Part shown: positions 10,074 through 29,589 of the stretch, in pieces | Layout of the letters: each line of letters opens with the position of its first letter | How positions within the stretch are numbered: position 1 is the first letter of the stretch | From: Rhodothermia bacterium | GTDB lineage: Bacteria; Bacteroidota; Rhodothermia; Rhodothermales; UBA2364 | Direction: 5' to 3' | Length of the DNA: 64,000 nt | Assembly (NCBI GenBank): GCA_017303715.1 | Contig: JAFLBZ010000005.1 | Span: forward strand, 128,511 to 192,510 | Position numbers and translations under genes: made by a program | The notes under the pieces: generated by a model | Told to the model about the DNA's origin: nothing | What the model saw: the letters and a program-made list of their open reading frames with translations, nothing else | Database searches by the model: none

Positions 10074-10449
10074 TTAGTTCTTTTGGATTTTACCATATGT
10101 TCTTACCCTTATGTTGGTCTTAACACATTGAAATACTCAATAATTTGCGGCTATTCTCTTTTTATTGGCTGTCTTTTTTTTAGTACTTTGTAAAGAGGAT
10201 TAACTTCATTCAAACGTAGCCGCTTTATCTTGTCTTCTTTTCTGATTCTAAGGATTCTTTGATTCACATACTCGACTTAAATATAGATTAAACAATAACT
10301 TGAGAAAAACTGCCTATTCTCAAATGATCCTTTTATAAAAAACCCGCAAATCACTTCACCCATATACAAGGAATTTGCTTAAATTAAAGAAAGTCACAAA
10401 CATTTGCTTGGCAGCCATTTTTAATAACGTAAATAAAAAGGCGACTAAC

Positions 10450-13400: not shown

Positions 13401-13503
13401 GGTTAAGAAAAAGCTCGGCCTCTCCGCCGAAGACGATCTCGCCATTTATCTTAAGGGGTTCGGAACTATTAACGAGAGTTCGGACGAACTAATCAGTAAA
13501 TGA
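10450..13503 (+). CDS. One-component regulator: periplasmic two-component-regulator-propeller repeats + Y_Y_Y domain + TM helix + coiled coil + LuxR-type HTH
   Basis: The ATG at 10450 gives a signal peptide (MAKILKYHSFFTGILLVVFHPILLTAQ). Repeated IWVGT/LWIGT..GL propeller motifs are present. The TM segment is LPFRIFLFILFGILLW. The C-terminal HTH is LTANDLRICSLMLINVNTKEMASILNISPKGVEKSRYRVKKKLGL. Confidence 0.8.
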   Translation: MAKILKYHSFFTGILLVVFHPILLTAQNPSFSFEQITIQQGLSHNTVYAILQDRYGLMWFATHNGLNKYDGYGFKNYNTSTRSDPNFEGRIISTLIEDRSGNIWVGTQNKGINVLWAATGRFMACRSHSVLSALANTWITRIYEDRSGSIWITTIGKGIFTYDPTKNRLNQWSKTNKKLNSNHAFDVMQDAQGRMWAVTDQPTLSLFSSSKQRFSSIPIDPTQQIKLLGYRKVLRAAKNGTLWIGTERQGIFQFNPYDNQLQHYPLDAAKNSYNEVRDIEFAQNGSIMVGTDGGGVYFIQPGNANIVSLQKDVTRSGSLNTNALYDLYLSKDNNLWIGTYNGGINVHKSRKLRFENFTHTGFHDGELSHPSVLSIIQTKNGNIWMGTDGGGLNRLDPLTRTFSAKTHQSKTTTSLAGNVVKSLYEAPDGRIWIGYFGQGLEVFDPKTGSIKRINKPINTPASLLDGNIWSISGAPDGKLYIAILGDGLIVYDPTSETLNHYKAGSPNAKNLPSDDLMYVHRDRNNRVWIATRDRGLVLFTPENGQFKQFKSNTGDPNSLRGAEVRVIFEDHKGGIWVGTEDGGLNQWKGGDQFWNYNTHKGLLSESVMGIQEDKDGFIWVSTIPGLSRINPKTGSIENFNFHHHAQPNQFNQAAILFNQSGKLMVGGINGLIMLKPSEVTQSTSMPRVRLTELRIFNDMILAGKTSSGRTIYEGRIEEVKEINLSYLDNAFSIDFATSDLSDPQNNRFEYKLEGFHSHWQQLELPRHSVNFTNLEHGSYIFRIRGTNSMGIWSDKETFVKINISPPFWKTLPFRIFLFILFGILLWQGNRLLLHRRERHLREKMMESERAFLQLKNEKLASDLAAKNNQLVSMSLQMAHKNDFLNKLKRELKDPPPTQDVPQPSQQQVIKLIDAEVRGEDFWERFNAFFEETNNAFAQELKRKHPDLTANDLRICSLMLINVNTKEMASILNISPKGVEKSRYRVKKKLGLSAEDDLAIYLKGFGTINESSDELISK

Positions 13504-13515
13504 CGTTCACGCGCT

Positions 13516-14103
13516 CTAATTTGATTGTAGCTTCGAATAAGGTGTAATATGAAGTTCTTGGGTCAACCTATTTGCAAACGCATTCAATGCAAGGTCTTTG
13601 GCGATTGGTTTGACAACTTGCCAAACAACCAATAACACACTCCCAACGGACGTTGGAGGCGCAAGTTCAACGGCCTGTGGCGTTATAACGGTTCTTTCTA
13701 ATTGGCCACGCAAGGCATCCATCCTTGTCAGATCATTTGTGTACGTTAATGACATGATAGGTTTACCAAACTTATAATTACGAATAGATTGATGTAAGCT
13801 CAATAATGTGGCCTCATGAACCAAGACTATCTCATCGTATTTTTGGATGGCCTTTGCTTGTTCTGCATTCGGTAGTGTTTTTATTTTTCTTCCAAATTGT
13901 TCCGTCTCTTTTTTGTTCATCTCTAAACGATTAATAAGCGTTGTATCCACCTTTATGACTAAGTTTTGAGCCAATCGGAGGGTAACAACCACTTTTCCTG
14001 TCGTTTTTGATGAAAAAACATCACTTGCTTTATTAAAGACTTTACAACCTGAAAGGGTCAAAAGACAAAAAGCACTTATCAAATAAAAAGATTTTTTTTT
14101 CAT
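13516..14103 (-). CDS. Small lipoprotein, family B (paralogue of 14157..14690 and 35464..36030)
   Basis: The lipobox is LLTLSGC. It aligns by eye with 35464..36030: RLA..IK.D..IN.L...KAI..Y..IV.VH...I..Y..G.PI. Confidence 0.6.
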   Translation of the reverse strand: MKKKSFYLISAFCLLTLSGCKVFNKASDVFSSKTTGKVVVTLRLAQNLVIKVDTTLINRLEMNKKETEQFGRKIKTLPNAEQAKAIQKYDEIVLVHEATLLSLHQSIRNYKFGKPIMSLTYTNDLTRMDALRGQLERTVITPQAVELAPPTSVGSVLLVVWQVVKPIAKDLALNAFANRLTQELHITPYSKLQSN

Positions 14104-14156
14104 GTTGATTAATTCATTTTTTCGGATTTAGTTTTGGCATAAGTCATTCCTGACTT

Positions 14157-14690
14157 TCATTTATTTTTCGAGCTTTCCAGCTCATTAAAATTAATTATTT
14201 GCAAATCAACCGTCAAAACCTCTGCAAAATAAGCCAAGACCATGCTACGTGCTGGCGCTTTTATTGCTTGATAAATAGAAGCCGAAATTGCAGATGGGTC
14301 TTTCATCGCTTTAGGCTTTAGCAAGCCCGACTCATTCATCCTATCAAAGAGAATTTTATAGTTAAGTTGAATATTTTCAAAAAAGGTATTAAACCTACCA
14401 ACCTTTATAGTCGTTCCAATTTTATACGCTAATATATCTTTTTTAAGGGCCAACAACCCCGCTTTCTGTGCAGTTTGAATATTTTGGTATAGTTGGGTAT
14501 ATTCCCCTGCTTTATTTGGCCCTATGTTTTTAAGGATCCAGCCTAGTGCTTCTGTATCATTCTTAAACCTTTCAAAAGAATCAACAACTTTGGGTTCTAT
14601 CCGAACAACTTTTCTATGCATGAGGTGGACACCATCAATTCTACAACCTGTGAAAAGGGACAATACAATTAAGGCTATATATTTTTTCAT
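14157..14690 (-). CDS. Small lipoprotein, family B (divergent paralogue)
   Basis: The lipobox is SLFTGC. It has the same length and layout as 13516..14103, and the C-terminus matches: IYQAIKAPARSMVLAYFAEVLTVDLQI versus VVWQVVKPIAKDLALNAFANRLTQELHI. Confidence 0.55.
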   Translation of the reverse strand: MKKYIALIVLSLFTGCRIDGVHLMHRKVVRIEPKVVDSFERFKNDTEALGWILKNIGPNKAGEYTQLYQNIQTAQKAGLLALKKDILAYKIGTTIKVGRFNTFFENIQLNYKILFDRMNESGLLKPKAMKDPSAISASIYQAIKAPARSMVLAYFAEVLTVDLQIINFNELESSKNK

Positions 14691-14765
14691 ATTTTACCTC
14701 AATGATTTAGCGTGTTTAAGGTTATTAGATATAAACATGTTTGTTAAAGTCCAATACTTCCTTAT

Positions 14766-15590
14766 TTAACTTTTTACGACTAATGCTTTCCTGAAAATAG
14801 TAGCAAGGTTTTTGTAGGGTAAAAACCCTTTACCACTTATCTCCCACAATATTTTTTCAGGATGGTAAGCCATGAAACCACCATCATATTGACGATCATC
14901 ATACCCTGTCAATACAAGTGTAATTTCCTTCATACTGGGAAGTACCTTGCCATCAAAACCAGAAGATACAGTAAAGAACTCTTCTAAACTTTTTTCATTT
15001 AAAACCAACTCAACAATGATAAGTGATTTTTTATTAATTTCATGCCGTAGTGACTTGATAAGCTGTATTTCGGATAGCCCACCAATATCCATATTTTTAA
15101 CTTTAATGTCCTTTTGAGCCATTTGTTCTACATTTTCAATAATATTATCAGAACAAAATAGCCCTACCTGGGACGAAGGTACAAGACCTTTAAACTCGAC
15201 GACTTTTTGCAAAGAGTCCCATGCAACATTTTTAGTGCAATCCGCATAATTAATGGCCATTTTATGCAACATACCGGGAGAAAAAACAAGCATTTCTGGT
15301 TTTTCAGTAGCGTGGGTATTTATCCAACTAAGTGTGCTTGCAAAACTTATTGCAACGGCTTTTTTCATGTATTCTGGCGCCCCTAACGCAAAAACGGGGG
15401 TTTTCTCAAAATTTGTTACATATGGAGGAAGTCCTTCATCGTCAAAGATGATTCCTGTTGGTTTTGGAATTGTATCTTGCAACGAAGATGACTTATATCG
15501 TAGTTGCGAAGCAACTTTAAAAGCTGGACGAGTAGTTGTGCCACATGCAATAAGCCCAAAAAGTAATGGGCAAATAAGGAAGTTACGCAT
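14766..15590 (-). CDS. Lipoprotein resembling a catalytically inactive papain-like (C1) domain
   Basis: The lipobox is FGLIACG. Blocks shared with the neighbouring C1 peptidases are FSPG and LVLTGYDDRQYDGGFMAYHP versus HAVTVVGYDDQKDGGAFEIMNSWG. The Cys-motif position (CTAWS) reads ASTLSW and the His position reads E. Confidence 0.5.
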   Translation of the reverse strand: MRNFLICPLLFGLIACGTTTRPAFKVASQLRYKSSSLQDTIPKPTGIIFDDEGLPPYVTNFEKTPVFALGAPEYMKKAVAISFASTLSWINTHATEKPEMLVFSPGMLHKMAINYADCTKNVAWDSLQKVVEFKGLVPSSQVGLFCSDNIIENVEQMAQKDIKVKNMDIGGLSEIQLIKSLRHEINKKSLIIVELVLNEKSLEEFFTVSSGFDGKVLPSMKEITLVLTGYDDRQYDGGFMAYHPEKILWEISGKGFLPYKNLATIFRKALVVKS

Positions 15591-15781
15591 AATTGAAATG
15601 AGTTTAATGAATTGAGTTTGTCACAACAAAAGACAGTAAACACTAAAGTACAAGAACAACAACTGTTTTTGTCATGAGATAATTGCGAAGTGAGAGGTAT
15701 TAAGTGAAAAGATATTTTAACAATTAGCATCTTAGTAAACATAAATATCAATTCACGTTTTGTATTTTGAATTATTTCATA

Positions 15782-17236
15782 TTATTCAACCTCCATTTCC
15801 AATATTAAAACAACGAGACCTTGTTCATTTGACTTCACCCTGAATGATATTTTTTCTTGAGAATATTCAATTTTGGCATCAGGAATTCGTCTTGATAGTA
15901 ATACTCTATTAAGTTTTTCTGAAATAGTACCTGTTTTTTCTTGTTTTAGTAAAGACATTATTGCATCAAAATCCAATTTTTCAGTGGAATATAAAACAAT
16001 AAAATAATCCGTTGTCTTAAAGTCACTCGCCTCAAATACATGCTTTTCGCTTGGAATAGCCGTCTCATTTATTAATTCCCCAAAACTTTTATAGTTCATA
16101 TAAGGATCTATATTTTCCTCATATGGAAACAATTTTGTTATTTCACCTCTTAAGTCTGACCCTATAGCATAAACAAATGCAGGTTCACTATTTTCTATTA
16201 CAAGACGATATTGTAATTGCTGGGGAATAGGTTTTTCGGTACGGTAATGACTTTGTATGATGCGAGACAGCCTTGGCGCCCCATATTTTTTATTAGATAT
16301 TGTTTTAATAACCCTTCCATACCTATCTTCAACCCTAAATGAGCCACTTAATGTTTTCGTTGGTGTGGGCAAATGATTGCGTTTTGGAATTAATTCAATC
16401 GCCATATCTGTAAAATGAGCAAAGTCATCGTATTTTATCCACCAAAATCCTTTATCCCCCCACGCTGTTCCCCAGCTGTTCATGATTTCAAAAACGCCTC
16501 CATCCTTAGTATCATTATAACCGACAACCGTCATCGCATGCCCAATAGTACCGCTTTCCCCGACTGGTTTCCATGCCCCAATTTGATAGTTCCTTAAACT
16601 TTCCCATGCCTCACGGGTAAAACTCATTCCAATCATGACCGGATACTTTTGAGCCAGTGATTTTTTAACATTTCCAACTTTTTTAGACAGATCTCTTTCA
16701 TTGATATCAAATAATCGAGCATAGCCTTCTAACTTGGAAAATTCCCAATTCTTAATAGACGGCAACTCATGATCTTGTGGACAATCAGACCTAATTTCTG
16801 CCATACGGGGAGCGCCTACATTTTTTAAGGTTTCTAATATTGGCACCAAATCCCCTCCTTGGCTACACGTTTCATCTGCTGGAAAAGACAGTCTATAGAT
16901 AGACCCCGCATTATACATCTCACGGCTGATCACGTTAGGCGATCGCCAATTTCGATTTTGTGCCTCAAGAATTACACGGGCATGAGCCGCAGACCATGCC
17001 GTACAAGTTTCGTACTCACCTTGATCGCCCGGAGTTGGGGCAAAAGGACGAAGAGAAATTTCTTTTGGCAGATTTTCACCACTCCTTGTGGTAAATGAAA
17101 TTTTTTGAGGTAGTCTTTGATAAGAATCAATTGACAATTTAGTGGTAACAAGCCCCTGGGAAAACAAAAGATTTACCTCTAATGTCGTAGTCAGTATAAT
17201 GACAGCCCAACAAAATATTTTCTTTCCTAAAATCAT
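15782..17236 (-). CDS. Secreted papain-family (C1) cysteine peptidase with a DUF4384-like C-terminal domain
   Basis: A signal peptide is present. In QGEYETCTAWS the Gln is 6 residues before the Cys, as in papain. GHAMTVVGYNDTKDGGVFEIMNSWGTAWGDKGFWWIKY supplies the His and the Asn-Ser-Trp-Gly block. The C-terminus PAFVYAIGSDLRGEITKLFPYE..YFIVLYSTEKL matches the DUF4384 pattern. Confidence 0.8.
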   Translation of the reverse strand: MILGKKIFCWAVIILTTTLEVNLLFSQGLVTTKLSIDSYQRLPQKISFTTRSGENLPKEISLRPFAPTPGDQGEYETCTAWSAAHARVILEAQNRNWRSPNVISREMYNAGSIYRLSFPADETCSQGGDLVPILETLKNVGAPRMAEIRSDCPQDHELPSIKNWEFSKLEGYARLFDINERDLSKKVGNVKKSLAQKYPVMIGMSFTREAWESLRNYQIGAWKPVGESGTIGHAMTVVGYNDTKDGGVFEIMNSWGTAWGDKGFWWIKYDDFAHFTDMAIELIPKRNHLPTPTKTLSGSFRVEDRYGRVIKTISNKKYGAPRLSRIIQSHYRTEKPIPQQLQYRLVIENSEPAFVYAIGSDLRGEITKLFPYEENIDPYMNYKSFGELINETAIPSEKHVFEASDFKTTDYFIVLYSTEKLDFDAIMSLLKQEKTGTISEKLNRVLLSRRIPDAKIEYSQEKISFRVKSNEQGLVVLILEMEVE

Positions 17237-17251
17237 ATTTTTTTTAAATGA

Positions 17252-18688
17252 CTATTTAATATCCATTTCAAGAATCATCATGACCACATCTTTCCCTTTA
17301 CTTTTTGCAGTAAATGACACTTTAGTTTTATCAAACCGGACATTGTCATCTTTTAGGAGACGATCACCCAATACTTTGGATAATCTTTCGGCAAAATTCC
17401 GACCTTGTGTTGTCTTTACTTGGGCAATAATCGCATTAATATCCAGCTCTTCTTTTGAATATAATACCGCCAGATAATCCGTCCCGCCTCCAGCAGAAGT
17501 AGCCTCAAAAGCAAAATCCTCACCGGGTAAAGAGATTTCGTTCTCCTTTCCGGTTATTGCTGCACTAACATAATCCCCATTTTCGTCTTGATATGGAAAC
17601 AATGTATTTATTTCATTGGTTTTATCCCCACCGATAACATACATAAAAGCAGTCTCATTATTTTTAACGAGGAGGCGATAAGGTGTTCCTGCGTTGATTT
17701 GGCTTTTTACTTTGTATTGACTTTTTTGTAGTCCAACTAATTTTGGTGCACCGTACGATAGGTTATATTGCGTATTCAGTTCTTTCCCATTTAGATCAAT
17801 AAGTCTAAAAGACCCCGCCAAATCAATTGTATTTGTTTTTTCTGAAATGGCAATCATTTCATACGCCTCTTTAACATTCAAAGCAAAATCATTGTATTTT
17901 ATCCAGATATAGCCATTATTTGCCCATGCTTCCCCCCACGAGTTCATGATTTCGAAAGCCCCGCCATCTTTTTGGTCATCATACCCGACAACGGTGACAG
18001 CATGTCGCACATTCCCACCGTCCAAGGTTGCTTGCCATACGTGTTTGTTGCTGGGTTTTAATAAGGACTTTCCACAACTGTCACAATATAGACCTACAAT
18101 AACGGGATTACCTTGAGAGAGTGCCAATTTTACAGCATCTATTTTCGCCTGTTGACTGGATTCTGGCTTAAATAGCCGATTGTATCCGGCTATTTTAAAT
18201 CCTTGAGCTTCATTTAAAAAAGGCAACGCCTCGCTCATATCTACACAATCTTTACTAAAACTTCCTTTTGTTGCAATTCCTTTACTTTGGAGATTATCTA
18301 ATGCAGCCCAAATATAGATGCCCTCAGAGCAATTAACATCGGAGGGATCTTTTGTTAGCGCATAAATGAATCCTGGAGAGAATGCTTTTTCTGATATTGT
18401 GGACGGGTTACTTATTTTCTCTTGCCGTGCATGAAGGATGGTTCTTGCTGCATACCCCACAGACCATGCCGTGCAGGTTCCGTAATTCGCTTGATGCCCG
18501 GGCTTTGGTGCAAACTGTTTAATAGATGCCCTCTCTGGTACTTTATCATAGGTATTCGCTGTTCTTGGTGCTGAGTAAGCGATTAAACGATATTTATTCT
18601 CGTCATATTTTGCCCCTGTCACATTAAATTGCGCCGATACAGCAGGGAGAGTAAACAGGAAAAATATTAATAATAAAAGCTGTTTCAT
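17252..18688 (-). CDS. Secreted papain-family (C1) cysteine peptidase with a DUF4384-like C-terminal domain (tandem paralogue)
   Basis: The signal peptide is MKQLLLLIFFLFTLPAVSAQ. Catalytic motifs are QANYGTCTAWS and RHAVTVVGYDDQKDGGAFEIMNSWGEAWANNGYIWIKY. The C-terminus is TAFMYVIGGDKTNEINTLFPYQ..DYLAVLYSKEEL. Confidence 0.8.
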   Translation of the reverse strand: MKQLLLLIFFLFTLPAVSAQFNVTGAKYDENKYRLIAYSAPRTANTYDKVPERASIKQFAPKPGHQANYGTCTAWSVGYAARTILHARQEKISNPSTISEKAFSPGFIYALTKDPSDVNCSEGIYIWAALDNLQSKGIATKGSFSKDCVDMSEALPFLNEAQGFKIAGYNRLFKPESSQQAKIDAVKLALSQGNPVIVGLYCDSCGKSLLKPSNKHVWQATLDGGNVRHAVTVVGYDDQKDGGAFEIMNSWGEAWANNGYIWIKYNDFALNVKEAYEMIAISEKTNTIDLAGSFRLIDLNGKELNTQYNLSYGAPKLVGLQKSQYKVKSQINAGTPYRLLVKNNETAFMYVIGGDKTNEINTLFPYQDENGDYVSAAITGKENEISLPGEDFAFEATSAGGGTDYLAVLYSKEELDINAIIAQVKTTQGRNFAERLSKVLGDRLLKDDNVRFDKTKVSFTAKSKGKDVVMMILEMDIK

Positions 18689-18760
18689 AAGAAATCTATT
18701 TTGAGTGATTTAGTGGCATTGGGAACGATAATCAGGATAACATTATTGCTCCCTTAAAAC

Positions 18761-18778
18761 ATCCCTTATAATAGGGGT
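18761..18778. promoter_or_regulatory. Candidate operator, ATCCCT-N6-AGGGgT (one mismatch), ~80 nt upstream of the C1 peptidase pair
   Basis: atccct tataat aggggt lies in the 18689-18920 intergenic region. The same half-sites and spacing occur at 24006, 24207 and 29283. Confidence 0.45.
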
Positions 18779-18872
18779 TTTCAGATTATGGTTCTCGCCA
18801 TTTCGCAGTACTTTTTTTACTTTCCAAATGTTATGAAAGAAAAGCAATGTATCCGAACGTGGTGATATCAAG

Positions 18873-18909
18873 TTTTGGGGCATACTACCCGCAGTAAAAT
18901 GCCCCAAAT
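18873..18909. terminator. Strong hairpin just downstream of the caspase-PEGA gene
   Basis: tttggggcat-N15-atgccccaaa is a 10-bp perfect stem 12 nt after the stop at 18921 (minus strand). There is no clear U-tract on the minus strand, so terminator function is uncertain. Confidence 0.4.
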
Positions 18910-18920
18910 AATTTTCATCT

Positions 18921-20891
18921 TTAGAAAGAAGCTACAATACTAGCGCCTTTGATTGAAGGATTAAGGTGTATAGACACCTTTACCCGCTCACTTAAAACCT
19001 TTTCTAAATACTTGTTATAGTCCATCTTTACAATGCGACCAATTTCAAAGATTGCAGATAGACCCCAAATAGCGCCTAAGCTTGGGACAGCGTATTGTGC
19101 AATATTGTATGCACTTTTTACGTTAGCATTTTGCTCCTTTTCCAATTTTGCCGCTTCTTTGTTGTATTGATCTTCAGCAAAGGGCCGTCCATATAAAATG
19201 AGACCTGCTGCAAAACTTCCTCTTAAGAGAAATTTAGTACCATGGCCAATGATGTCTTTGCGAAATCTTCCTCTGGCCTCTTCCTCTGGTGTAATTTCTA
19301 GCCGGACTGTTTCTTGCATTGTTTTTGATTCTTTAACATCAACGACTAAAAGTTTAGGGGTATGTTTAGGCTTTGTCAGAAGAATCCGTTGTTCCCCGTA
19401 CCCTAATTCAATATTGAGGGGTGTTTTCCCGTGAACTTTATCTTTTAAGGTGACAACTGCTCCATCTGGGATGGTATATAATTGGAGTAGTGTAGATATT
19501 TTTTCCAGAACGAACTCGAAAGATTGTTCATCTTGTGTTAAGTCTATTGAAGTATTTTGGATAGGCTTGTATCCTGAAGCGTCAACGGTAATCACATAGC
19601 GCCCTTTTTTAAATTCCTTGCTTGTAGAACCTGTTGAGATCAATTCATTGTTGATCGTAATACTTGCATTTTCTGGTACCACTTTAAATCTAACAAGAGT
19701 AGTTTCTCTTGATAGATTAATCTCAACAATTAAATCCTCATCCGGTTTTATCTCAACTTCTTTGTATTCTGTATTATACCTATCCTTACGCACCTCAAAT
19801 TTATACAAGCCGGGATCTATCCTATATTCAAATGTATTACTTGTTGCATAACCTAATTGTTTACTATCTAAAAAAATGCGTGCATTATCAACGTTAGTTT
19901 TCAAAGTAATTTTTGACTTAAATGCTTGTTTTGAACTAACATCCATAAGTATAGGATTTTCAACAAGCATTTCCTCCAATCTTCGAGGTGTTAGTTCGAA
20001 GAAAAAGCTACCGTTATCCGGACTAAATGCACCTTCGATTGGAGTTTGTTTTCCCCCTTTCATTTTGGCGTAATAAGGTACACGAGCCATGATATATTGG
20101 AAGAGTTCTTTGGAAATAACGATATTATCCTTATTTTCGTCAGCCTTACCTTTTTCAAGCCCCTCGAGTAGAACATACATCAAAGCACTGTGTTGCCAAT
20201 CTGCAGACTCAACAACTTCTTCATCCGCAGAACCTGCTGTTATAATTTCGCGACTTTTTTGAGACCAAACATTTTTCAAGTATGCACGTGTAAACTCTCC
20301 TCCACTACCACTCCTTGTTGTCGCCAGTCCACTATAACAAGCATCTATTAAAAATAGAACATGTTTGGGAATAAACTGGTCAGAAAAGTCTCTAAGTTCA
20401 TTCATTTTAACGGATGTACCAAAGAGAGACTTCGTATCAACGTCATGATTTAACAAAAAACCGAGTGGTTGATCCTTTCTACCACCTGTCTGGCCATGAC
20501 CAGCATAATAGATGAGTAAGGATGAATTTTCGGAAACGCTGTCGTTTGTAAATCTTTCAAGAGTAGAAATAATATTTGATCTCGTAGCATTTTCATCTAA
20601 CAAGATAAATATATTATCTTCTTTATATCCAAATTTATCCTTCAATAAACGCTTCATTGCTACAGCATCTTCTGCGGCATAAGTTAAAGGTCTAACATTG
20701 GAATCTTGATATTTATTAATTCCGATCAAAACAGCGTATCTCTCATCGTATGTTGAAGCCATATCTACTGATGATAAGACCCCTTCCGTAGAACTGCCTG
20801 GTGGTAATGTGTTTGGATTATCTTGTCCTAATACGTCTTGCGACTTCAAGGCTATCAATAAAAAAAACAACGTTAGTATGTAAGATTTCAT
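18921..20891 (-). CDS. Secreted caspase-like (C14) peptidase + three PEGA domains + C-terminal domain ending in Phe
   Basis: A signal peptide is present. The caspase motifs are YAVLIGINKY, the His motif LLIYYAGHGQ and the Cys motif LFLIDACYSG. The PEGA-like units are NARIFLDSKQLGYA, ENASITINNELISTG and DGAVVTLKDKVHGKTPLNIELGYG. The last residues are IKGASIVASF. Confidence 0.8.
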   Translation of the reverse strand: MKSYILTLFFLLIALKSQDVLGQDNPNTLPPGSSTEGVLSSVDMASTYDERYAVLIGINKYQDSNVRPLTYAAEDAVAMKRLLKDKFGYKEDNIFILLDENATRSNIISTLERFTNDSVSENSSLLIYYAGHGQTGGRKDQPLGFLLNHDVDTKSLFGTSVKMNELRDFSDQFIPKHVLFLIDACYSGLATTRSGSGGEFTRAYLKNVWSQKSREIITAGSADEEVVESADWQHSALMYVLLEGLEKGKADENKDNIVISKELFQYIMARVPYYAKMKGGKQTPIEGAFSPDNGSFFFELTPRRLEEMLVENPILMDVSSKQAFKSKITLKTNVDNARIFLDSKQLGYATSNTFEYRIDPGLYKFEVRKDRYNTEYKEVEIKPDEDLIVEINLSRETTLVRFKVVPENASITINNELISTGSTSKEFKKGRYVITVDASGYKPIQNTSIDLTQDEQSFEFVLEKISTLLQLYTIPDGAVVTLKDKVHGKTPLNIELGYGEQRILLTKPKHTPKLLVVDVKESKTMQETVRLEITPEEEARGRFRKDIIGHGTKFLLRGSFAAGLILYGRPFAEDQYNKEAAKLEKEQNANVKSAYNIAQYAVPSLGAIWGLSAIFEIGRIVKMDYNKYLEKVLSERVKVSIHLNPSIKGASIVASF

Positions 20892-20951
20892 GAAATTAAA
20901 GATTTAAAATGTGATCAAGAAGTTTTGTAATAAGTGTCAGACTCAGACTAT

Positions 20952-22649
20952 TTAATCAAGTACTTTAACCAGTCTAAAGCCAATATTGGCATTTTTTTTA
21001 TTGGGGTCAAAAAAATACCTATGCTCTAACCCTTTTGCTTCATGTATAAAGGAGCCTCCACGGATTACTTTAAGTGGGTATCCAGTTTGTACATTATTAA
21101 CAGGGTCTATATTTGGCGCATTTTGATAGTATTTACCATCATACCAATCCATTGTCCATTCCCATACATTGCCAATTACGTCAAAAATTTCCCAATTATT
21201 TGGCGGGTAATTTCCAACTGACATACTACTACCTACTCCACTTATAGACGTCGTGCAATCGGCACAATTTGCTCTACCAGTGCCTATGAATTCTCCCCAT
21301 GGAAAACGATCCACACTTCCAGCACGTGCTATATATTCCCATTCAGCCTCGGTAGGTAATCTATAGCTATGTATATTTTCTTTAGCATTTAACCGCTTGA
21401 TAAATTCTTGAACTTCATACCAAGATATATTTTCAACTGGATTCGATAGGTTACTTTTATTTTTACTGGGGTTATCTCCCATAACCATAAGCCATTGTTC
21501 TTGTGTAACTTCATATTTCCCTACATAGAAATCATTTGTGATTATAATCTCCTTTCGTGGTGACGAATCAGATTTTTCATCTTCCAGACTTCCCCTCATA
21601 AACACACCTTTATCTATCAAGACAAATTCTATACCGTAATTATTTTTAATATATTTGGGATATATATTTTCTTTTTTTGGATTTTTTACATTTTTTTTAT
21701 TGTTAATGGTAATGTTTATTGAAGGTTTAGGATCAATAAATGAAACTTGTGTTTTGGGTTTAACTAATGGCTCTTTTGGAGTATTTAAATCAATTTTTTC
21801 TTTGGCTTTTGGCTTAAAATAAAAATCGGAAAAGAGAATTCCTGAGCAGTCTGGGATTTGACCTCTTTCAGTAATGCTGCTTACTTTAACCGAAACTTTT
21901 CTACAGATCTCGTCCACTCCTACCCCTTCCTCCAAAATAGCGCCAGCAAGAGCCTCCGTAAAAACACCATTCTGGGCATCTTCGTATTCCCGTGCAGTTC
22001 CATTTGGACGGGTTCCGTAGATAATTTTCGCATTAACGACTTGATCCAACCCGACATTAAGACCACTTTGCCACCCAGCAACTCTTAGGGCTGGCAGTAC
22101 ACGACAAGCATCTAGAATAAGAATTTTAGTTATGTCTTTGGCTTTCTCGGCAAGTTTCCGTTGGATGTCTTCAATTGAGAGCGAGCCTTCAGCCATTCTG
22201 TCTGGTCTGTCAGTGGCGGCTTCAATGCCGGCCAGCCAATTCCCTGTTCCATATTGAAAACCATGGCCAGCAAAGTAAAAAACAACCGCTTCTTCATCTC
22301 CTTTAACCTTGCCCATAAACTGATCTACAGCATTTTGCATGCCCGACCTTGTTTGATTTACCGCCTTGATAACCGTAAAACCCAAATTCCTTAACGTCTG
22401 CTCCATCAATAACACATCCTCTTCAGGCTTACTCAGTTTTGGTAGGTAGCGATATTGTTCATTTCCCATAAGGAGGGCAAGCCGCTTATTAGCGCCTGTA
22501 GGCTTCACAATGGGCGCTCTCTCCACAAATTTGCGGCTTTCCTGGGCTGAGACTGTTACATAAACACTAAAAAACAATATATAAAAAGCTTTATTTATCA
22601 ACTTTATCAAGACTTTTAATCTTAAAATACGCAGATTAGCATTATACAT
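20952..22649 (-). CDS. Secreted caspase-like (C14) peptidase fused to an FGE/SUMF1 (formylglycine-generating-enzyme family) domain
   Basis: A signal peptide is present. The caspase motifs are LALLMGNEQY, VVFYFAGHGFQ and ILILDACR. The C-terminal FGE-type motifs are FYVGKYEVTQEQW, PVENISWYEVQEFIKRLN, YRLPTEAEWEYIARAGS, NVWEWTMDWY, VIRGGSF and GFRLV. Confidence 0.8.
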   Translation of the reverse strand: MYNANLRILRLKVLIKLINKAFYILFFSVYVTVSAQESRKFVERAPIVKPTGANKRLALLMGNEQYRYLPKLSKPEEDVLLMEQTLRNLGFTVIKAVNQTRSGMQNAVDQFMGKVKGDEEAVVFYFAGHGFQYGTGNWLAGIEAATDRPDRMAEGSLSIEDIQRKLAEKAKDITKILILDACRVLPALRVAGWQSGLNVGLDQVVNAKIIYGTRPNGTAREYEDAQNGVFTEALAGAILEEGVGVDEICRKVSVKVSSITERGQIPDCSGILFSDFYFKPKAKEKIDLNTPKEPLVKPKTQVSFIDPKPSINITINNKKNVKNPKKENIYPKYIKNNYGIEFVLIDKGVFMRGSLEDEKSDSSPRKEIIITNDFYVGKYEVTQEQWLMVMGDNPSKNKSNLSNPVENISWYEVQEFIKRLNAKENIHSYRLPTEAEWEYIARAGSVDRFPWGEFIGTGRANCADCTTSISGVGSSMSVGNYPPNNWEIFDVIGNVWEWTMDWYDGKYYQNAPNIDPVNNVQTGYPLKVIRGGSFIHEAKGLEHRYFFDPNKKNANIGFRLVKVLD

Positions 22650-23319
22650 TTAGAATTACTTTAATTTTGAAGAAAAAATTTATCAGTAAAACAGATAAGA
22701 CATACTATAAAGAAGACAGTAATATCGCTTTATCTACCATAATAAGATAAAAAAACCAGATTAACAACATCAAACAAACCCGTACCATGAATATTAAGTT
22801 AACATTATTCTGTTTTATTAAGATATTTTAAATAGAAAACAAGGTCTATCAGCACCCAGTTTATATGTAAAGGCACGTCCTTGTCTTGGATAAATACTTT
22901 AAATTAAATGACTTAATCACCAGCAAACATGTCCGTCGAGCGGTGCGGAAAGAAAATCGCAATAAACACTTGTAGCGAATGTTTAGTGCAAATTACAGTT
23001 ATGGCATTAATACCAATTTGGATATTGGCCTTCTTGACTGGTTAGAACAAAATGGTGGGCAATCGTAGAAAAAAGCAAAAGAGTATTTCTATGTGTTTAC
23101 TGCTTATTATAAAAAAATACAAATATTATCTTTTTTAAGCATTACTTCCGCCGATGTCACATTTATGAAATACTCTTTTGCTTAAGCGCAGTGACAAATC
23201 AGTACGCAAGAATTTATTAATTTTATGTTTTTTTAATAATTTTGCTACATTCAGAATAAGATATCCCCTATTTAATGTCAAGGATATAAAGAACACAACT
23301 CTACAATTTCTTTTAATCC

Positions 23320-23967
23320 TCACAATCTTTTGGGATGAATCAAGCCCTCTTGGATTGCTTTTACGACAGCTTCCACGTTCGAGCCAGCATGTAGCTTCTG
23401 GTAGATATTTTTAACATGGGAATTAACGGTATGGGTACTTATGAACAGGGTTTCTCCGATCTCTTTTTGAGAACGTCCCTTTGCCATCTCTTCCAAAACT
23501 TTTTTCTCTGCATTGGTGAGTTTTTGCCCTTCAGACCGATTCTCGGCCTTTCGGAAAGATGACAACACCCGCTGCGCCACTCTTGGCGGCATAGGCATAC
23601 CTCCCCCCACAGCCAAGTCAATCGCGGCAAGCAAATCCACATCCGATGCATCCTTTAGTAGATAGCCAGATGCGCCTTCTTCCAATGCCCTAAAAATGGA
23701 CTGGTCATCATCATTTATCGTGAGCATTACGATCGTCACCAGTGGCCATTTCTTTTTAAGATGGCCAACACAAGAGATGCCATCCATTGCCCCCATATTG
23801 ATGTCCATCAAAATAACATCTGGCGATTGTTGGTTCTTTTGTGCTTCAAGTGCTTCCTCTCCCGATGCAAAAGCGCCAGTACAGATCAGCAATTTCGAGT
23901 CCTCAATCAAAGAAAGTAGGCTTTCTCGGTAGCGTTTATTGTCTTCTACGGTCCAAATCCGAAGCAT
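23320..23967 (-). CDS. Response regulator, NarL/FixJ family (REC + LuxR-type HTH)
   Basis: The REC domain shows VEDN..DVILMDINM..VMLT. The HTH is LTNAEKKVLEEMAKGRSQKEIGETLFISTHTVNSHVKNIYQKL. Confidence 0.88.
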   Translation of the reverse strand: MLRIWTVEDNKRYRESLLSLIEDSKLLICTGAFASGEEALEAQKNQQSPDVILMDINMGAMDGISCVGHLKKKWPLVTIVMLTINDDDQSIFRALEEGASGYLLKDASDVDLLAAIDLAVGGGMPMPPRVAQRVLSSFRKAENRSEGQKLTNAEKKVLEEMAKGRSQKEIGETLFISTHTVNSHVKNIYQKLHAGSNVEAVVKAIQEGLIHPKRL

Positions 23968-24005
23968 CTTTTTTCTTTAGAATAGGGAACTTGTATGTTC
24001 ATCAA

Positions 24006-24271: not shown

Positions 24272-24955
24272 ATGCACTTTGTTTTTTTCTACACATATTT
24301 TGGTTTATCCAGCAGTATAGGCTTGATATTTCTGTATATACTTTCTGGTTGTAGTCATCCAATACAAACAAAGACCTTTACTAACCAAGGAAACTTAGCG
24401 GATAATGATACTTTAGAGGTTGCCTCTGCTTCTTTGCTTAGAATTGAAGAGGGATTAGAAGCTCAGGATGCTACACGCATTCGTGAGGGGATCGAGACCC
24501 TTATGCAAAACAACATCTTGATTATATCTACCGAGGTACGTCCAAACGGTCAATTTACCTATAAAAACCTTCTAAACGAAGCCAAATCTTTCCGTAACAC
24601 TCCACCTGATGAGTTAGCAAAGATAGACAGATTGCTGGAGGTTTTAGAAAGGCCACAACAACCATTATTAATGGTAAATGTTTGTCGTGCCAAACTTACC
24701 AAGAAAAATGAGACCTCTTCCAATTGTACCATAAAAACCTTCAGAAATGGAGATTTGAGGGTTTTAGTTCGGACGGTACCCCAAGACATTGAGTGGCGTT
24801 TAGAGGGCAACAATCTTACTTCTTGCACAGGTTGTTGGCAAATCTGGAAAGGCTCTGGGAGAATCCAATGGATCACGCAAAAAAACCAAACACATCTTGT
24901 TTTGATACGCAATTTAAGTTCAGTGTCTGGCACATTCCTGCTTACATGGAACTAA
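24272..24955 (+). CDS. Putative lipoprotein, translationally coupled to the sensor kinase
   Basis: The hydrophobic N-terminus has the lipobox ILSGC. Its stop overlaps the kinase ATG (ATGGAACTAA, 24946-24955). Confidence 0.5.
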   Translation: MHFVFFYTYFGLSSSIGLIFLYILSGCSHPIQTKTFTNQGNLADNDTLEVASASLLRIEEGLEAQDATRIREGIETLMQNNILIISTEVRPNGQFTYKNLLNEAKSFRNTPPDELAKIDRLLEVLERPQQPLLMVNVCRAKLTKKNETSSNCTIKTFRNGDLRVLVRTVPQDIEWRLEGNNLTSCTGCWQIWKGSGRIQWITQKNQTHLVLIRNLSSVSGTFLLTWN

Positions 24956-27906
24956 GAAATTATGTCTATTTTTGCTATTTTTTCAGTTTAATCGGCAGCA
25001 CCTCCATTTTACACGCCCAGTCGAAGGAGTATTGGGGGCTTCACCGTGTTCAAGACAAGGCTACACTGCATTTGGCAGAATTGGGCATTAATGCAATGGT
25101 AGATACAGACAGTGGCGACCTTTGGTTAGCCTCTTCAAAAGGTTTGTTTCTACATAATGGCTATACATTAGAGCAGTTTTGCAGTCAGATTGAAGGGGTC
25201 ACTGCTTTAACAAGATTACCAGATGGCCGGATTTTTGCGATGGACATGCACAATATGGCCTTTCTGGTTTATCCCACCCAGAACGATTCATTTGCTTGCT
25301 CACCCCTCTTTACCTTGTCTGATACAAACATCCTACGAGTTGTCGCAAGCAAGAACCACAATGGCTTTTATTACTGGCTGGCTTCAGAATACAATGTTCA
25401 TATCTATCGTAACAACACCAAAATCGCTAAATTGACCTTTCCGAATGGCGTAAAAGACATCAGGTACTTAGGTAGTGTTGTATCAGTGGTTTCGGGGCAA
25501 GAAATTTATTTTTGCCACGAAAATGGTCGTTGTGTTGTCCATACTTTTTTCAACAATGTCACCCATTTCTATAAAATAGGCGGGGATCAATGGTACGGAA
25601 CCGAAACCAATGGGCTGTGGATACAAACTGGTAAGACCATACGACAAGTGCTAAAAGGAAGTATTTTCCATCTTCACCCCGCTGCAAACAACCCTTCCAC
25701 TTTATTCGCCGCTACAGATGAAGGTATTTTTTTAGTCAATGCCCGCAACCATCATACCACTACCCTTAGTACGGGAAAGTGTTCTCTTGGCTTAACAGGA
25801 GACCATGTAATTTGGTGTGCAGATACACAAAACCTATTCCGCGCCATTATAAACCCTGATGGATTCCGGTTTTATTCCAAAGAAAATAGCTTACTCCATT
25901 CCTCTGATGTTCGAGACATTTCGGAATTAGATAACGGCCAAATAGCTATTCTGAACGGCTCGAATATAAGTTTCTTTAATCAAGGGAAACTACAATTCAA
26001 TTTAGAAACAAAAGACCAGTGGATCACCAAAATAGAACGAGCAACACACAATGAGATATGGATATTGTCCGAAGAAAAAAACTTATCATTATACAATTAT
26101 GTTGACCATAAAATGAGAACATTTAAGCCATTGCCTTTCCCTCCTAACGAAATAGCAGACCTTTTCTCAACACCATCCGGAGTCGTTTATATCGCTTCAA
26201 CAAAGGGTCTTTTCATCTTAAAAACAGATGGCTCACTCCAACCAAGCACCTTTAGACCCGCCGATATTCGGTTGGTTACTCTTGATAGGGAAGACCTTAT
26301 TTTACACCTGCAAGATGAAGGAATCTGGCGATTTCGCCCAAAAGAAAACACCTATCACCGCATAATCTCATTTCCTTGTGGATCGTCTGTACGTGGGATG
26401 TTTACGGATGCTCAAAGACGAATATGGATTGGAACAGAAAAAGGCTTATTTTATCTACAAAAATCTTCCTGTGAACAAGCTCCTCATTGGCCAAAAGAAA
26501 GAAGGGTACGTGCCCTATCTGGAGATGCAAAGAATGGGCTATGGGTAGTCGGAGAAAATACATTTTTTTCGCCAGAACTCTACCGCATTAATCTGTCCAA
26601 ACCCAGTTGGTTTCCAGTGTCTCTACCTTGGTTAAATGACTATACTGGATACCTACACAACTTGCCAAGCATACAAGGAAAAAATGGTCATATTTATTTT
26701 TTAGGACAACTCGGATTACTCGAAATAAACACACAAATAAATCATCATGATCTTATTGACTTTTCCGGCATTCAGCTTTTTGCACGGGATAAAGTGGTGC
26801 CCATCAAACAAGTAGCCCATAATGTTTTTGAAGTTAGAGAAGTTTTGCCACATTACCAAAACGACTTTTCTTTCTCCTTTCGTTTTCTTGACCATGAATC
26901 CGTTTCGATGGCGTATAAGTTGGTGGACTGGATGCCAAATTGGGCTTTACAAAGCGGAGATACCCCACTTAAGTTTGGAGGTTTATTGCCCGGAACTTAC
27001 GAACTTTATGTTTATATATCGCAACGAAATGGCCAATGGAGTTCAAAACCATTACAGATAAAATTTCAGATAAACCCGCCTTGGTGGATGCAACCCATTT
27101 CACGATTGCTTTTCTTCTCGGTCTTGGTTTTATTGGGGTGGTGGGGAAACAATCGGTGGAATCATGCCAAACGAAAACGCGAGGAAAATACTTTGGCCCT
27201 CCGAAAAAGCCGCCAAGAGGCCAAAGAAATGGCCATAGTAGCAGAACGGGAAAGATTAGAAGCAACCGAAAAATTACGAGAAGCCGCATGGCAGGCCGCC
27301 GAAACGAGGCGCAAAGACCGAAAACAATGGGAACAAGACCTCCACGATGAGCTTGGTGGACAACTCGGTGCCATAAAAAACCGATTACAAGTCCTAAAAA
27401 AACAACCAGAAGCCCAACCCCTAAAAGATACCCTTATCGCCATCGTTGATGAGGTGACCGATGCCTCAAAACAGCTTCGCCATTCCCGTTGGATGGTTGA
27501 CCCAACCGCTGATTATGCAGAAGCAGTTGTCGGTAGAATTGTTGGAATGGCGGTCGAAATGCTTTCCGGCCTCCGGCTCGACTTAGACTACCCCGAAGAA
27601 GTTCCGAACTTTGGAATTGATTTTAATGACCGAAAGAATCTGATTCTCGCCATTAAAGAGGCATTTCATAACATTTTAAAACATGCCCATGCAAGTATTA
27701 TCCACCTCTTTATACGTCTTCAGGATGGCGTATTATACGTTTCAATTCAAGATGATGGTAGCGGTTTTGACCCTTCCTTGATTTCATCAGGTGGTCACGG
27801 CCTTCGCAATATGCAAGAAAGATTGGCCGCATCCGGTGGGAGGTGTACCTTGACTTCAATCCCTAAAAAGGGTACAAAAATTGTTTTTGAACTGCCTCTA
27901 AAATAA
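24946..27906 (+). CDS. Sensor histidine kinase: periplasmic beta-propeller/Y_Y_Y-type sensor + TM + HisKA_3 + HATPase_c (NarX/LiaS class)
   Basis: The ATG at 24946 gives the signal peptide MELRNYVYFCYFFSLIGSTSILHAQ. The TM segment is LLFFSVLVLLGWW. The H-box is DLHDELGGQLGAI. The ATPase motifs are HNILKHAHA, DDGSGFD and GGHGLRNMQERL. Confidence 0.85.
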   Translation: MELRNYVYFCYFFSLIGSTSILHAQSKEYWGLHRVQDKATLHLAELGINAMVDTDSGDLWLASSKGLFLHNGYTLEQFCSQIEGVTALTRLPDGRIFAMDMHNMAFLVYPTQNDSFACSPLFTLSDTNILRVVASKNHNGFYYWLASEYNVHIYRNNTKIAKLTFPNGVKDIRYLGSVVSVVSGQEIYFCHENGRCVVHTFFNNVTHFYKIGGDQWYGTETNGLWIQTGKTIRQVLKGSIFHLHPAANNPSTLFAATDEGIFLVNARNHHTTTLSTGKCSLGLTGDHVIWCADTQNLFRAIINPDGFRFYSKENSLLHSSDVRDISELDNGQIAILNGSNISFFNQGKLQFNLETKDQWITKIERATHNEIWILSEEKNLSLYNYVDHKMRTFKPLPFPPNEIADLFSTPSGVVYIASTKGLFILKTDGSLQPSTFRPADIRLVTLDREDLILHLQDEGIWRFRPKENTYHRIISFPCGSSVRGMFTDAQRRIWIGTEKGLFYLQKSSCEQAPHWPKERRVRALSGDAKNGLWVVGENTFFSPELYRINLSKPSWFPVSLPWLNDYTGYLHNLPSIQGKNGHIYFLGQLGLLEINTQINHHDLIDFSGIQLFARDKVVPIKQVAHNVFEVREVLPHYQNDFSFSFRFLDHESVSMAYKLVDWMPNWALQSGDTPLKFGGLLPGTYELYVYISQRNGQWSSKPLQIKFQINPPWWMQPISRLLFFSVLVLLGWWGNNRWNHAKRKREENTLALRKSRQEAKEMAIVAERERLEATEKLREAAWQAAETRRKDRKQWEQDLHDELGGQLGAIKNRLQVLKKQPEAQPLKDTLIAIVDEVTDASKQLRHSRWMVDPTADYAEAVVGRIVGMAVEMLSGLRLDLDYPEEVPNFGIDFNDRKNLILAIKEAFHNILKHAHASIIHLFIRLQDGVLYVSIQDDGSGFDPSLISSGGHGLRNMQERLAASGGRCTLTSIPKKGTKIVFELPLK

Positions 27907-28013: not shown

Positions 28014-28835
28014 TCCTTCAGGGCTAAAGCCCAATGCGATTCGGGGCCTACTACCCCGCCCTAAAGGACGGAGTTAATGCCTTCCTCCACTTTGCATCTC
28101 TGCCTAGCTATTGCTTTTGGGTTGCTCTCACCTCCGCCCTGAAGGACGGAGTTAATGTTTTGGTGTTTTCCTCTTCGCGCTCTTGGGTGATGTTGCAAAA
28201 CGCCTTTTAACCCCATGCTTCAGCGTGGGGTTGCCTGCGACGATCAAACGCTCGGCTTTAGCCATGACAATTCGTAGAAATTCGTCATCAAACGCTCGAC
28301 CCAGCCCCGTAGGGGTGGCCTCTTCGTAGAATGCCATTCCCAAGCCACGCCCAGCCCCGTAGGGGTGGCCTCTTCGAAGAATGCCATTCCCAGCGCACAG
28401 CATTCGCCTTTTGCCATCGTTCAGGGCTAAAGCCCAATGCGATTCGGGGCCTACTACCCCGCCCTAAAGGACGGAGTTAATGCCGTGCTCCACTTTGCAT
28501 CTCTGCCAAGCTATTGCTTTTGGGTTGCACTCACCCTTGCCCTGAAGGACGATGCACGGCATACACGTTGGGCATCTTTCAGGGCTAAAGCCCCTCTTTT
28601 ATTGGTTGCTCTCACCTCCGCCCTAAAGGACGGAGTTAATGTTTTGGTGTTTTCCTCTTCGCGCTCTTGGGTGATGCTGCAAAACGCCTTTTAACCCCAT
28701 GCTTCAGCGTGGGGTTGTCTGCGACGATCACACGCTTGGCTTTAGCCATGAATATTCGTAGAAATTCGTCATCAAACGCTCGACCCAGCCCCGTAGGGGT
28801 GGCCTCTTCGAAGAATGCCATTCCCAGCGCACGGC
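28014..28835. repeat. Composite hairpin-rich repeat, two tandem copies (~400-420 nt each)
   Basis: ttcagggctaaagcccaatgcgattcggggcctactaccccgccctaaaggacggagttaatgcc starts near 28017 and again near 28421. Each copy continues into ttttggtgttttcctcttcgcgctcttgggtgatg..aaccccatgcttcagcgtggggtt..ccagccccgtaggggtggcctcttcg. The sub-motifs are small palindromes (gggctaaagccc, ccgccctaaaggacgg, aacccca-N10-tggggtt). Confidence 0.9.
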
Positions 28836-29282
28836 AAAGCAACCTTGATGAATCAGGAAAATCCGGACATGAAAGATGCGACTTGCCGAGATTTGTTACA
28901 TCATCGCATATCCCAGAAATAGCCCGTTTGCCCTACTTGTGGTCTATTAAACCGGATTTCCCTGCATCATTTTTGCCGAAAGAGAAAGTGCTTTATGAGA
29001 GGTGCATTTTGATCTTTTTATCCTTTAATAAAGATATTATGTATTAAAACGATTAAATAAACGGTATTTTGATCATATATTTAAAACCTAAAGTTACCAC
29101 CCTACCATCCATCAGTAATCATGAACAACCAACAGCTTAATATTTTTAAACATCCGTTGAGAACAACATATACACGGCATTGTCTTCAATATTTGTGTAG
29201 CGGCATAAGGTCAATATCTAAAGGACACGCATGAAACTTTATACCGCTTTGACCTAAGTTACTGCCAACCCCTTCCTTGAGC

Positions 29283-29300: not shown

Positions 29301-29589
29301 ATTTACCTGTAAGTATTGCGTATAAAGGTCAAAATCCCTCCTTTAATAAAACAAGCAAACCAATATATAACAACAACTTACAACCTCACCTCTTTCTGAT
29401 TTGAATGTCAATATTTATTTTTAATGGTGCTTGGTCGCCGTTCAAATCTTGTTTTTGCCATCTGTTCTTGCTATTTTGGCACTACATTTTGTATCTCCCA
29501 CCAGATCATACGCAGTTTTACCGTGTTGGCACTGTCATCACAGCCCCTTCGCAGGAGCAATTCCGCTACTTCAATACTGGTCTTTTGTC

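Follow-up and report, generated by a model that had tools for sequence, protein, structure and literature searches.

Among the bacterial caspase homologues with several domains, fusions to a domain of the formylglycine-generating enzyme (FGE)-sulfatase family belong to the most frequent. The architecture was reported in 2012 in 33 sequences, which placed the FGE-sulfatase domain fifth, by how widely it occurs, among the accessory domains of prokaryotic metacaspases (PMC3501461). Cyanobacterial orthocaspases with a C-type-lectin (CLec) domain have since been described as targets of diversity-generating retroelements (DGRs), together with non-diversified paralogues, and the same work proposes FGE/CLec domains as sensors for caspase effectors (PMC7517822). 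FGS, FGE and CLec domains have likewise been proposed as sensors or 'neutralising' binders coupled to effectors of the caspase or trypsin type (PMC7159879, PMC10907252, PMC12642450, PMC13581612), and in one Ser/Thr-kinase family FGE-sulfatase is an alternating C-terminal domain (bioRxiv 10.1101/2025.01.12.632604). Here we analyze a caspase-FGE gene of a Rhodothermia bacterium that lies in a 64,000-nucleotide stretch of contig JAFLBZ010000005.1 (GCA_017303715.1, positions 128,511 to 192,510), hereafter the window; its coordinates and those of its neighbors within the window are collected in Table 1.

The window protein has the layout of the known metacaspase-FGE fusions, namely a Peptidase_C14 domain, a variable linker and a C-terminal FGE-like domain, with an intact protease dyad and without the Cys pair of true FGEs; many of these fusions also share with it an N-terminal hydrophobic segment. 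It differs from them in its sequence distance, the closest other family members found being only 31-36% identical in an alignment of the window protein with 25 full-length caspase-FGE homologues (alignment A1, 26 sequences), in a missing scaffold Cys and in having no DGR nearby. From the cyanobacterial fusions it differs further by its origin in a Rhodothermia/Bacteroidota-type metagenome-assembled genome (MAG) and by the position of its gene in a neighborhood that encodes other exported cysteine proteases. Both the domain combination and its interpretation as a sensor are already published, and the window protein is a divergent example; the initial annotation, which called the combination known and its role untested, agrees in this with the literature (PMC3501461, PMC7159879, PMC7517822). 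Three points are useful or mildly new: the loss of the Cys pair in every caspase-fused sequence examined (44), the predicted extracytoplasmic location (the initial annotation had missed the signal peptide), and the recurrence of exported caspases beside papain-like proteases with a DUF4384 domain (C1-DUF4384). Our preferred reading, which we hold to be on balance probable, is that of an exported caspase tethered by a linker to a ligand-recognizing, catalytically dead FGE domain and working with neighboring proteases.

The protease half and the FGE-like half

The initial annotation had described a caspase fused to an FGE-fold domain, with the caspase His and Cys motifs in the N-terminal half. 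The open reading frame (ORF), the Pfam matches to both domains, whose E-values lie far beyond chance, and all of the quoted motifs bear this out. FAGHG at 126 supplies His129 and LDACR at 179 supplies Cys182, and the C-terminal half contains YRLPTEAEWEYIARAG at 429, NVWEW at 494, RGGSF at 530 and GFRLV at 557. An AlphaFold2 model (mean predicted local distance difference test, pLDDT, 78; predicted template modeling score, pTM, 0.49) is confident for each domain on its own. The linker that joins them varies in length and cannot be aligned among the homologues of alignment A1. A look-up by exact sequence gave no record of the protein, but the homology search retrieved an identical one (P0001), which has been deposited from a MAG labeled Rhodothermia bacterium under the NCBI name 'SUMF1/EgtB/PvdO family nonheme iron enzyme'. 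This name is misleading: the caspase domain does not figure in it, and it suggests catalysis of an FGE-superfamily type for which the sequence gives no support.

The caspase half is closest to the paracaspase MALT1, which is its best match in the PDB by sequence (2.6e-15) and also its best fold match in Foldseek (3v4o, target-normalized template modeling (TM) score 0.80). In the PDB sequence alignment, 'ILDACR' of the window protein pairs with 'LLDMCR' of MALT1. Asp78, Asp180 and Glu221, whose codons were checked, align with D365, D462 and E500, respectively, the S1-pocket residues of MALT1. These three residues would form an acidic S1 pocket, unlike the basic pocket of Asp-specific caspases, and the alignment thus predicts the Arg/Lys specificity known from orthocaspases and metacaspases. 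With its intact His129-Cys182 dyad the caspase half looks active, and the fold, the His-Cys dyad and, by alignment, the acidic S1 pocket by which the orthocaspase/paracaspase type of peptidase family C14 is recognized are all present. The LDxCR active-site motif and the three acidic residues are thus common to the window protein and MALT1 (3v4o and related structures), whereas MALT1 serves as a scaffold in the eukaryotic cytosol and contains death and Ig domains, and the window protein is bacterial, predicted to be exported and fused to an FGE fold.

The FGE-like half shares its fold and the motifs RLPTEAEWEYAAR, NVWEW, RGGS and GFR with characterized FGEs (human SUMF1 and the enzymes of S. 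coelicolor and T. curvata), but it lacks their Cys pair (CxxxxC after RGGS; C336/C341 in the human enzyme). The initial annotation had left the alignment of this pair to characterized FGEs open. In a HMMER alignment to S. coelicolor FGE (6muj/2q17), 'RGGSYLCHDSYC' of the enzyme pairs with 'RGGSFI-HEAKG' of the window protein, so that the first copper-binding Cys faces a gap and the second faces Gly540; no Cys occurs anywhere beyond residue 465. The loss is shared by the family, as CxxxxC after RGG was found in 0 of 44 caspase-FGE sequences and in 0 of 87 other FGE-domain ORFs of the fetched loci, and most homologues retain a single Cys at the second FGE position, never the pair. Since both copper-binding cysteines are absent, no formylglycine formation is expected, and the domain is almost certainly not an FGE. 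The assumption of the initial annotation that the FGE-fold domain is non-enzymatic is therefore supported. The combination of an intact FGE site with a sulfatase, which that annotation would have read as a sign of ordinary sulfatase maturation, is not seen: the Cys pair is gone, and Pfam detected no sulfatase, DinB or reverse transcriptase domain in the window ORFs of at least 180 aa.

A structural model, which the initial annotation had recommended, points in the same direction. In Foldseek the C-terminal domain of the AlphaFold2 model lies nearer to PvdO (target-normalized TM 0.73, the top match) and to TvpA (2y3c; 0.71, root-mean-square deviation 3.1) than to true FGEs (0.57-0.66), that is, nearer to non-catalytic relatives. 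By sequence, the best PDB matches are true FGEs (5e-18), with PorK structures matched at ~4e-11. No NCBIfam model reached its cut-off: the top match, GldK (TIGR03525), covers only the C-terminal part and attains 78.5 where 350 would be needed, and the other scores are 73 (cut-off 500) for PvdO, 58.5 (360) for EgtB, 49.7 (420) for SenA, 39.1 (400) for OvoA and 55.6 (140) for caspase_w_EACC1. PorK/GldK and PvdO have in common with the window domain the FGE fold, the missing Cys pair and a periplasmic location (predicted here), but their scores are far below the cut-offs, there is no lipobox, and no type IX secretion system (T9SS) ring or pyoverdine genes adjoin the caspase-FGE gene. Membership of PorK/GldK was rejected on the GldK score and the missing lipobox, and an enzyme of the EgtB/OvoA/SenA type on the lack of a Pfam DinB domain and the scores below cut-off.

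The sole cysteines of the FGE-like half, Cys462 and Cys465, belong to a CADC motif that may bind a metal or form a disulfide in the periplasm. The homologue P0075 has a similar NCxxC, and CxxC is not kept across alignment A1.

In place of the Cys pair, the caspase-FGE family has its most variable stretch. Variability reaches a maximum of 2.4-2.8 bits at residues 535-554, between the RGG(S/G)W and GFRL anchors, and this peak coincides both with the site of the FGE Cys pair and with the stretch that DGRs rewrite in targets of the CLec/FGE fold. In Treponema denticola TvpA and other FGE-type DGR variable proteins (2y3c), the segment RGGSW...GFRL is the variable ligand-binding surface. The window protein possesses the TvpA-type fold and the variable C-terminal segment, whereas the template, the reverse transcriptase and Avd/HRDC are absent from the window.

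True DGR targets, like TvpA, occur among related genes, both caspase-FGE and FGE-only (loci L019, L084, L043 and L009). In L019 (8792-11046), a gene for a 626-aa caspase-FGE protein, with both domains confirmed by Pfam, is followed 250 bp downstream by a 126-nt repeat of the gene's own 3' end. All of the mismatches between the two copies (15/15) fall at adenines of the downstream copy, the template, whose translation is 'RGGSWNNPSQNCRASNRNNWNPSKRNNNLGFRLAR', rich in Asn. The tested ORFs of this 17-kb locus include no reverse transcriptase; the gene may be a remote DGR target or accompany an orphan template. In L009, L043 and L084 the adenine-specific signature likewise occurs, for FGE-only proteins. 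The DGR of L084 (1-17000, from a Mangrovibacterium MAG) has its template at 8028-8157 and a reverse transcriptase that seems to be truncated (173 aa); an accessory HRDC gene and four targets, which are secreted paralogues of the FGE fold, complete it. The next gene downstream of this DGR encodes a C1-DUF4384 protein, and a caspase gene follows ~1.7 kb beyond the latter; the N-terminal domain of the four targets recurs in a gene downstream of this caspase (15768-16544).

The initial annotation had taken FGE-fold domains in such fusions to bind ligands. This role gains support because variability within the family is highest in the stretch equivalent to the Cys pair and because this stretch is the target of DGR hypermutation in L019, and we consider it probable that the FGE-like domain of the window protein binds a ligand.

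Export and the neighboring cysteine proteases

The N-terminus of the window protein, MYNANLRILRLKVLIKLINKAFYILFFSVYVTVSA followed by QE, is built like a Sec signal peptide, and this holds also if an internal TTG is used as the start. Its hydrophobic stretch, AFYILFFSVYVTVSA, has a Kyte-Doolittle value of 2.14, and cleavage would leave a Gln at the front, in keeping with the 'Q-rule' of Bacteroidetes. AlphaFold2 models the signal-peptide region as a lone helix, followed by disordered residues 36-52; no lipobox was found at the N-terminus. Signal-peptide-like N-termini are present in 18 of the 26 aligned family members, and 6 of the other 8 are N-terminally truncated gene calls. On these sequence features the caspase-FGE protein is very probably exported, and with a signal peptide any sensing would occur in the periplasm or at the cell surface rather than in the cytoplasm.

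The caspase-FGE gene heads a run of seven same-strand genes for predicted exported proteins, four of which are cysteine proteases, an arrangement that the initial annotation had missed. All seven products carry a signal peptide or a lipobox, as judged by inspection of motifs and hydrophobicity. The second gene encodes a caspase with PEGA domains that has a signal-peptide-like N-terminus and intact GHG/DAC motifs. The two genes after it encode tandem paralogous C1-DUF4384 proteases; in the alignment of this family (alignment A2), the catalytic Gln66, His229 and Asn249 are invariant and Cys72 is present in at least 90% of the sequences. Three lipoproteins end the run. With a further caspase that carries PKD domains, five predicted exported cysteine proteases, three caspases and two C1 proteins, are encoded within 18 kb. 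The run is presumably co-transcribed. Its G+C content is 33-39% (14000-24000) against 42-51% in the flanks, which suggests horizontal acquisition.

Caspases recur next to C1-DUF4384 genes elsewhere. The C1-DUF4384 family is small (~100 clusters), and its named sources are mostly Bacteroidota. We fetched 83 C1-DUF4384 loci and scanned them with profiles built from our own alignments. A caspase gene lies within 600 bp in 22 of the 42 closest loci and in 1 of the 40 more distant ones; when only those of the closest loci with at least 2 kb on both sides are counted, 11 of 20 have an adjacent caspase. In most cases the caspase gene directly precedes the C1-DUF4384 gene in the same orientation, at a distance of -20 to +70 bp, and nearly all partner caspases bear a signal peptide. 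Their accessory domains change from locus to locus and include MORN, TPR and WG repeats, Sel1, CsgG-like, PEGA and FGE domains; in two loci (L028 and L112) a caspase-FGE protein is paired directly with C1-DUF4384. We found no description of this pairing in the searchable literature. The window gene belongs to this Bacteroidota-type pairing, in which a 'caspase with swappable binding domain' stands beside 'C1-DUF4384'.

Another locus (L002, 7000-11809; GCA_030157185.1) has three tandem caspase genes with the domain order C14, C14 and C14-FGE. Arrays of caspase paralogues in which the FGE fusion comes last may be another recurring arrangement.

Proposed mechanism and alternatives

Based on these comparisons, we propose a sequence of events for the caspase-FGE protein. 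The protein would be exported by the Sec pathway, its signal peptide would be removed between about Ala35 and Gln36, and it would act in the periplasm or at the cell surface. There, the FGE-fold domain would recognize an envelope ligand through its C-terminal RGGSF...GFRLV surface, and binding would bring the linker-tethered, Arg/Lys-directed protease to its target. A multivalent ligand could, in addition, cluster and hence activate the protease domains, as proximity does for caspases and MALT1. The partners are probably the co-directional caspase-PEGA protein and the two C1-DUF4384 papain-like proteases. The disordered linker of ~50 residues and the low pTM argue against a rigid intramolecular switch, and tethering or clustering fits better. 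That the ligand would actually trigger the protease we regard as doubtful, if far from negligible. The biological role may possibly be envelope-level conflict or defense, or the processing of surface proteins.

A more elaborate version of this mechanism would be an undescribed envelope cascade in which the caspase-FGE protein binds a non-self ligand and cleaves and activates the neighboring C1-DUF4384 proteases. We consider this improbable. The cascade would do outside the cytoplasm what the 'sensor-protease plus latent effector' defense modules do within it, with a recognition domain that is swappable and, in some relatives, DGR-hypermutated. Such modules (PMC12642450) and the vWA-MoxR and STAND systems with FGS domains (PMC7159879, PMC13581612) also place a swappable sensor on a caspase beside a conserved partner. 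They differ from the window set, all of whose components are predicted to be exported and which has no NTPase, and their partners are MBL, alpha/beta-hydrolase, Pepco or EACC1 proteins instead of a papain-like C1-DUF4384 protease. If a recognition-coupled envelope protease cascade did exist, the 'sensor-protease' logic of bacterial immunity would reach the periplasm.

Several observations weigh against the proposed mechanism. A repeat of 20940-21200 that could serve as a DGR template was found neither in 12-34 kb nor in the full 64-kb window (best E 0.35), and none of the window ORFs encodes a reverse transcriptase (RVT_1) or an HRDC accessory protein. A local DGR acting on the window gene was rejected on these grounds, and the window copy is therefore at most a fixed, non-diversifying allele; diversification was seen only in relatives of ~25-35% identity. 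The window segment lacks the single scaffold Cys kept by most relatives and is 2-3 residues shorter, and the putative binding segment could therefore be degenerate instead of specialized. No ligand is on record for any caspase-fused FGE domain, the window domain included, and activation by ligand-driven clustering is proposed purely by analogy. The export call combines a hydrophobicity heuristic with a cleavage-site rule. As for the partners, the window caspase domain is equally distant (31-36%) from the caspases beside C1-DUF4384, with no specific clustering, and a 232-bp gap separates the caspase-PEGA gene from the C1 genes. A scan for promoters and terminators gave counts equal to the shuffled expectation and is uninformative for this host. 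The three lipoproteins have no homologues in 166 related loci, and therefore only the protease pairing is conserved.

The main rival to our proposal is that the FGE-like domain is a passive anchor, which would fix the protease to a constant envelope component of the cell itself, for example peptidoglycan, another glycan or a periplasmic assembly like PorK/GldK, with no sensing involved. The protease would then be a constitutive degradative or nutritional enzyme, one among the many exported peptidases of a bacterium with a T9SS. The long flexible linker suits such tethering, typical modules for surface display (PEGA and PKD domains) are found on the neighboring caspases, and T9SS cargo proteins and other peptidases are encoded in the window, which contains no DGR. 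The best NCBIfam match, GldK/PorK, is a structural periplasmic lipoprotein of the same fold, and the PorK structures were matched as given above, though the GldK score is far below its cut-off and the lipobox of such a lipoprotein is missing. A passive anchor also fits poorly with the replacement of the accessory domain, in caspases paired with C1-DUF4384, by classic ligand- and protein-binding repeats, and the hypermutation of the equivalent surface in relatives is hard to square with a constant self ligand. We judge this explanation unlikely, although it deserves to be kept in view.

A cytoplasmic immune sensor-protease of the STAND, vWA-MoxR or Avs-like kind, in which recognition of a phage protein would unleash the caspase and lead to abortive infection, would agree with the published models of an FGE/CLec sensor with a caspase or trypsin effector (PMC7159879, PMC10907252, PMC12642450, PMC13581612). 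PADLOC, applied to the seven run proteins and the caspase-PKD protein, matched only its generic 'caspase' model and no known defense system, and the NCBIfam match to 'caspase, EACC1-associated type' stayed below its cut-off (caspase_w_EACC1, above). Neither outweighs the predicted signal peptide of the window protein and most of its homologues, the export signals on the six other run products, and a window that holds no NTPase, vWA, MoxR, EACC1, Pepco or effector-associated domain and no other known defense gene; a cytoplasmic sensor is very unlikely.

The same low standing applies to other chemistry, redox or metal-based, by the CADC loop, by which the domain would reuse its fold as EgtB, OvoA and SenA do. 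A CxxC in an otherwise Cys-free domain, the similar motif of P0075, the deposited name and the weak matches to EgtB, OvoA and SenA would favor it. The iron site of EgtB and OvoA lies, however, in an N-terminal DinB domain, for which Pfam gave no match here; the EgtB and OvoA scores (58/360 and 39/400) are low, and the CxxC sits in a low-confidence loop and is not conserved in the family.

A genuine FGE that matures sulfatases while the caspase processes them, a dual modification speculated on in the 2012 survey (PMC3501461), has a negligible chance despite the strong Pfam match, the signature motifs and the true FGEs among the best PDB matches, as the copper-binding cysteines are missing here and in every caspase-FGE sequence examined, the window has no sulfatase gene and the fold is nearer to PvdO and TvpA; the speculation that couples proteolysis to formylglycine is thereby removed for the window protein and for every relative examined.

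Feature coordinates and further elements of the window

Table 1. Positions in the window of the caspase-FGE gene, its domains and motifs, and the neighboring genes.
Feature	Position	Strand	Basis and details
Whole ORF, predicted exported orthocaspase with FGE-like (C-type-lectin fold) domain	20952..22649	minus	ATG to stop, 565 aa and stop codon
Predicted Sec signal peptide, aa 1-35	22545..22649	minus	Basic n-region, hydrophobic stretch; likely cleavage VSA/QE
Peptidase_C14 (caspase) domain, aa 55-277	21819..22487	minus	Pfam PF00656, E 4e-29, full model 1-233/233
Catalytic His129 codon (FAGHG)	22263..22265	minus	Invariant in 26-sequence alignment; codon checked
Catalytic Cys182 codon (LDACR)	22104..22106	minus	Invariant in 26-sequence alignment; codon checked
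Interdomain linker, predicted disordered, Lys/Pro/Asn-rich, aa 281-332	21654..21809	minus	Composition, 13 Lys in 52 residues; pLDDT <50 at aa 291-326
FGE-sulfatase-family domain, almost certainly catalytically dead, aa 341-562	20964..21629	minus	Pfam PF03781, E 2.8e-38, model 4-255/255
CADC (Cys462/Cys465), sole cysteines of the FGE-like half	21255..21266	minus	Low-confidence loop, pLDDT <50 at aa 452-472
RGGSF...GFRLV segment, aa 530-561, putative ligand-contact surface, no Cys	20967..21062	minus	Alignments, family entropy
Caspase with three PEGA domains	18921..20891	minus	Peptidase_C14 1.5e-18, PEGA 9.4e-20; 60-bp gap from caspase-FGE gene
Two tandem paralogous papain-like C1-DUF4384 proteases	17252-18688, 15782-17236	minus	Pfam
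Three lipoproteins ending the run	14766-15590, 14157-14690, 13516-14103	minus	Lipoboxes LIAC, FTGC, LSGC
LuxR-type response regulator	23320-23967	minus	Pfam
Reg_prop/Y_Y_Y histidine kinase	24793-27906	plus	Pfam
Reg_prop/Y_Y_Y protein	10375-13503	plus	C-terminus reads like a LuxR-type helix-turn-helix (Pfam did not confirm)
Caspase with six PKD domains and C-terminal hydrophobic anchor	29431-32202	plus	Pfam; GHG/DAC intact, signal peptide

The three lipoproteins at the end of the run are lineage-specific and gave no Pfam, NCBIfam or PADLOC match. A scan of 1.84 billion representative proteins with the first of them (274 aa) retrieved only itself; the second and third are mutual paralogues (24% identical, E 2e-13). 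That they might be inhibitors or immunity proteins of the proteases is a guess. The candidate regulators that flank the run hint, by proximity alone, at a periplasmic signal that controls the protease genes.

The non-coding region 28014-28836 contains direct repeats of 235 nt and 135 nt that are 94% identical, as well as three copies of a 53-nt unit. Scans for tRNAs and Rfam families gave no match in this region or elsewhere in the window; it is possibly a small mobile element or the duplicated remnant of a degenerate gene.

Por_Secre_tail (T9SS sorting) domains occur in three proteins, all encoded on the plus strand (32251-35046, 33-1526 and 8080-9999), from which it follows that the organism has a type IX secretion system; no caspase or C1 protein of the window carries this domain. 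The gene at 32251-35046 also contains six copies, spaced 123-126 nt apart, of a repeat encoding 'NGGVFSSSNNGASWTQVNSGLTNT...'.

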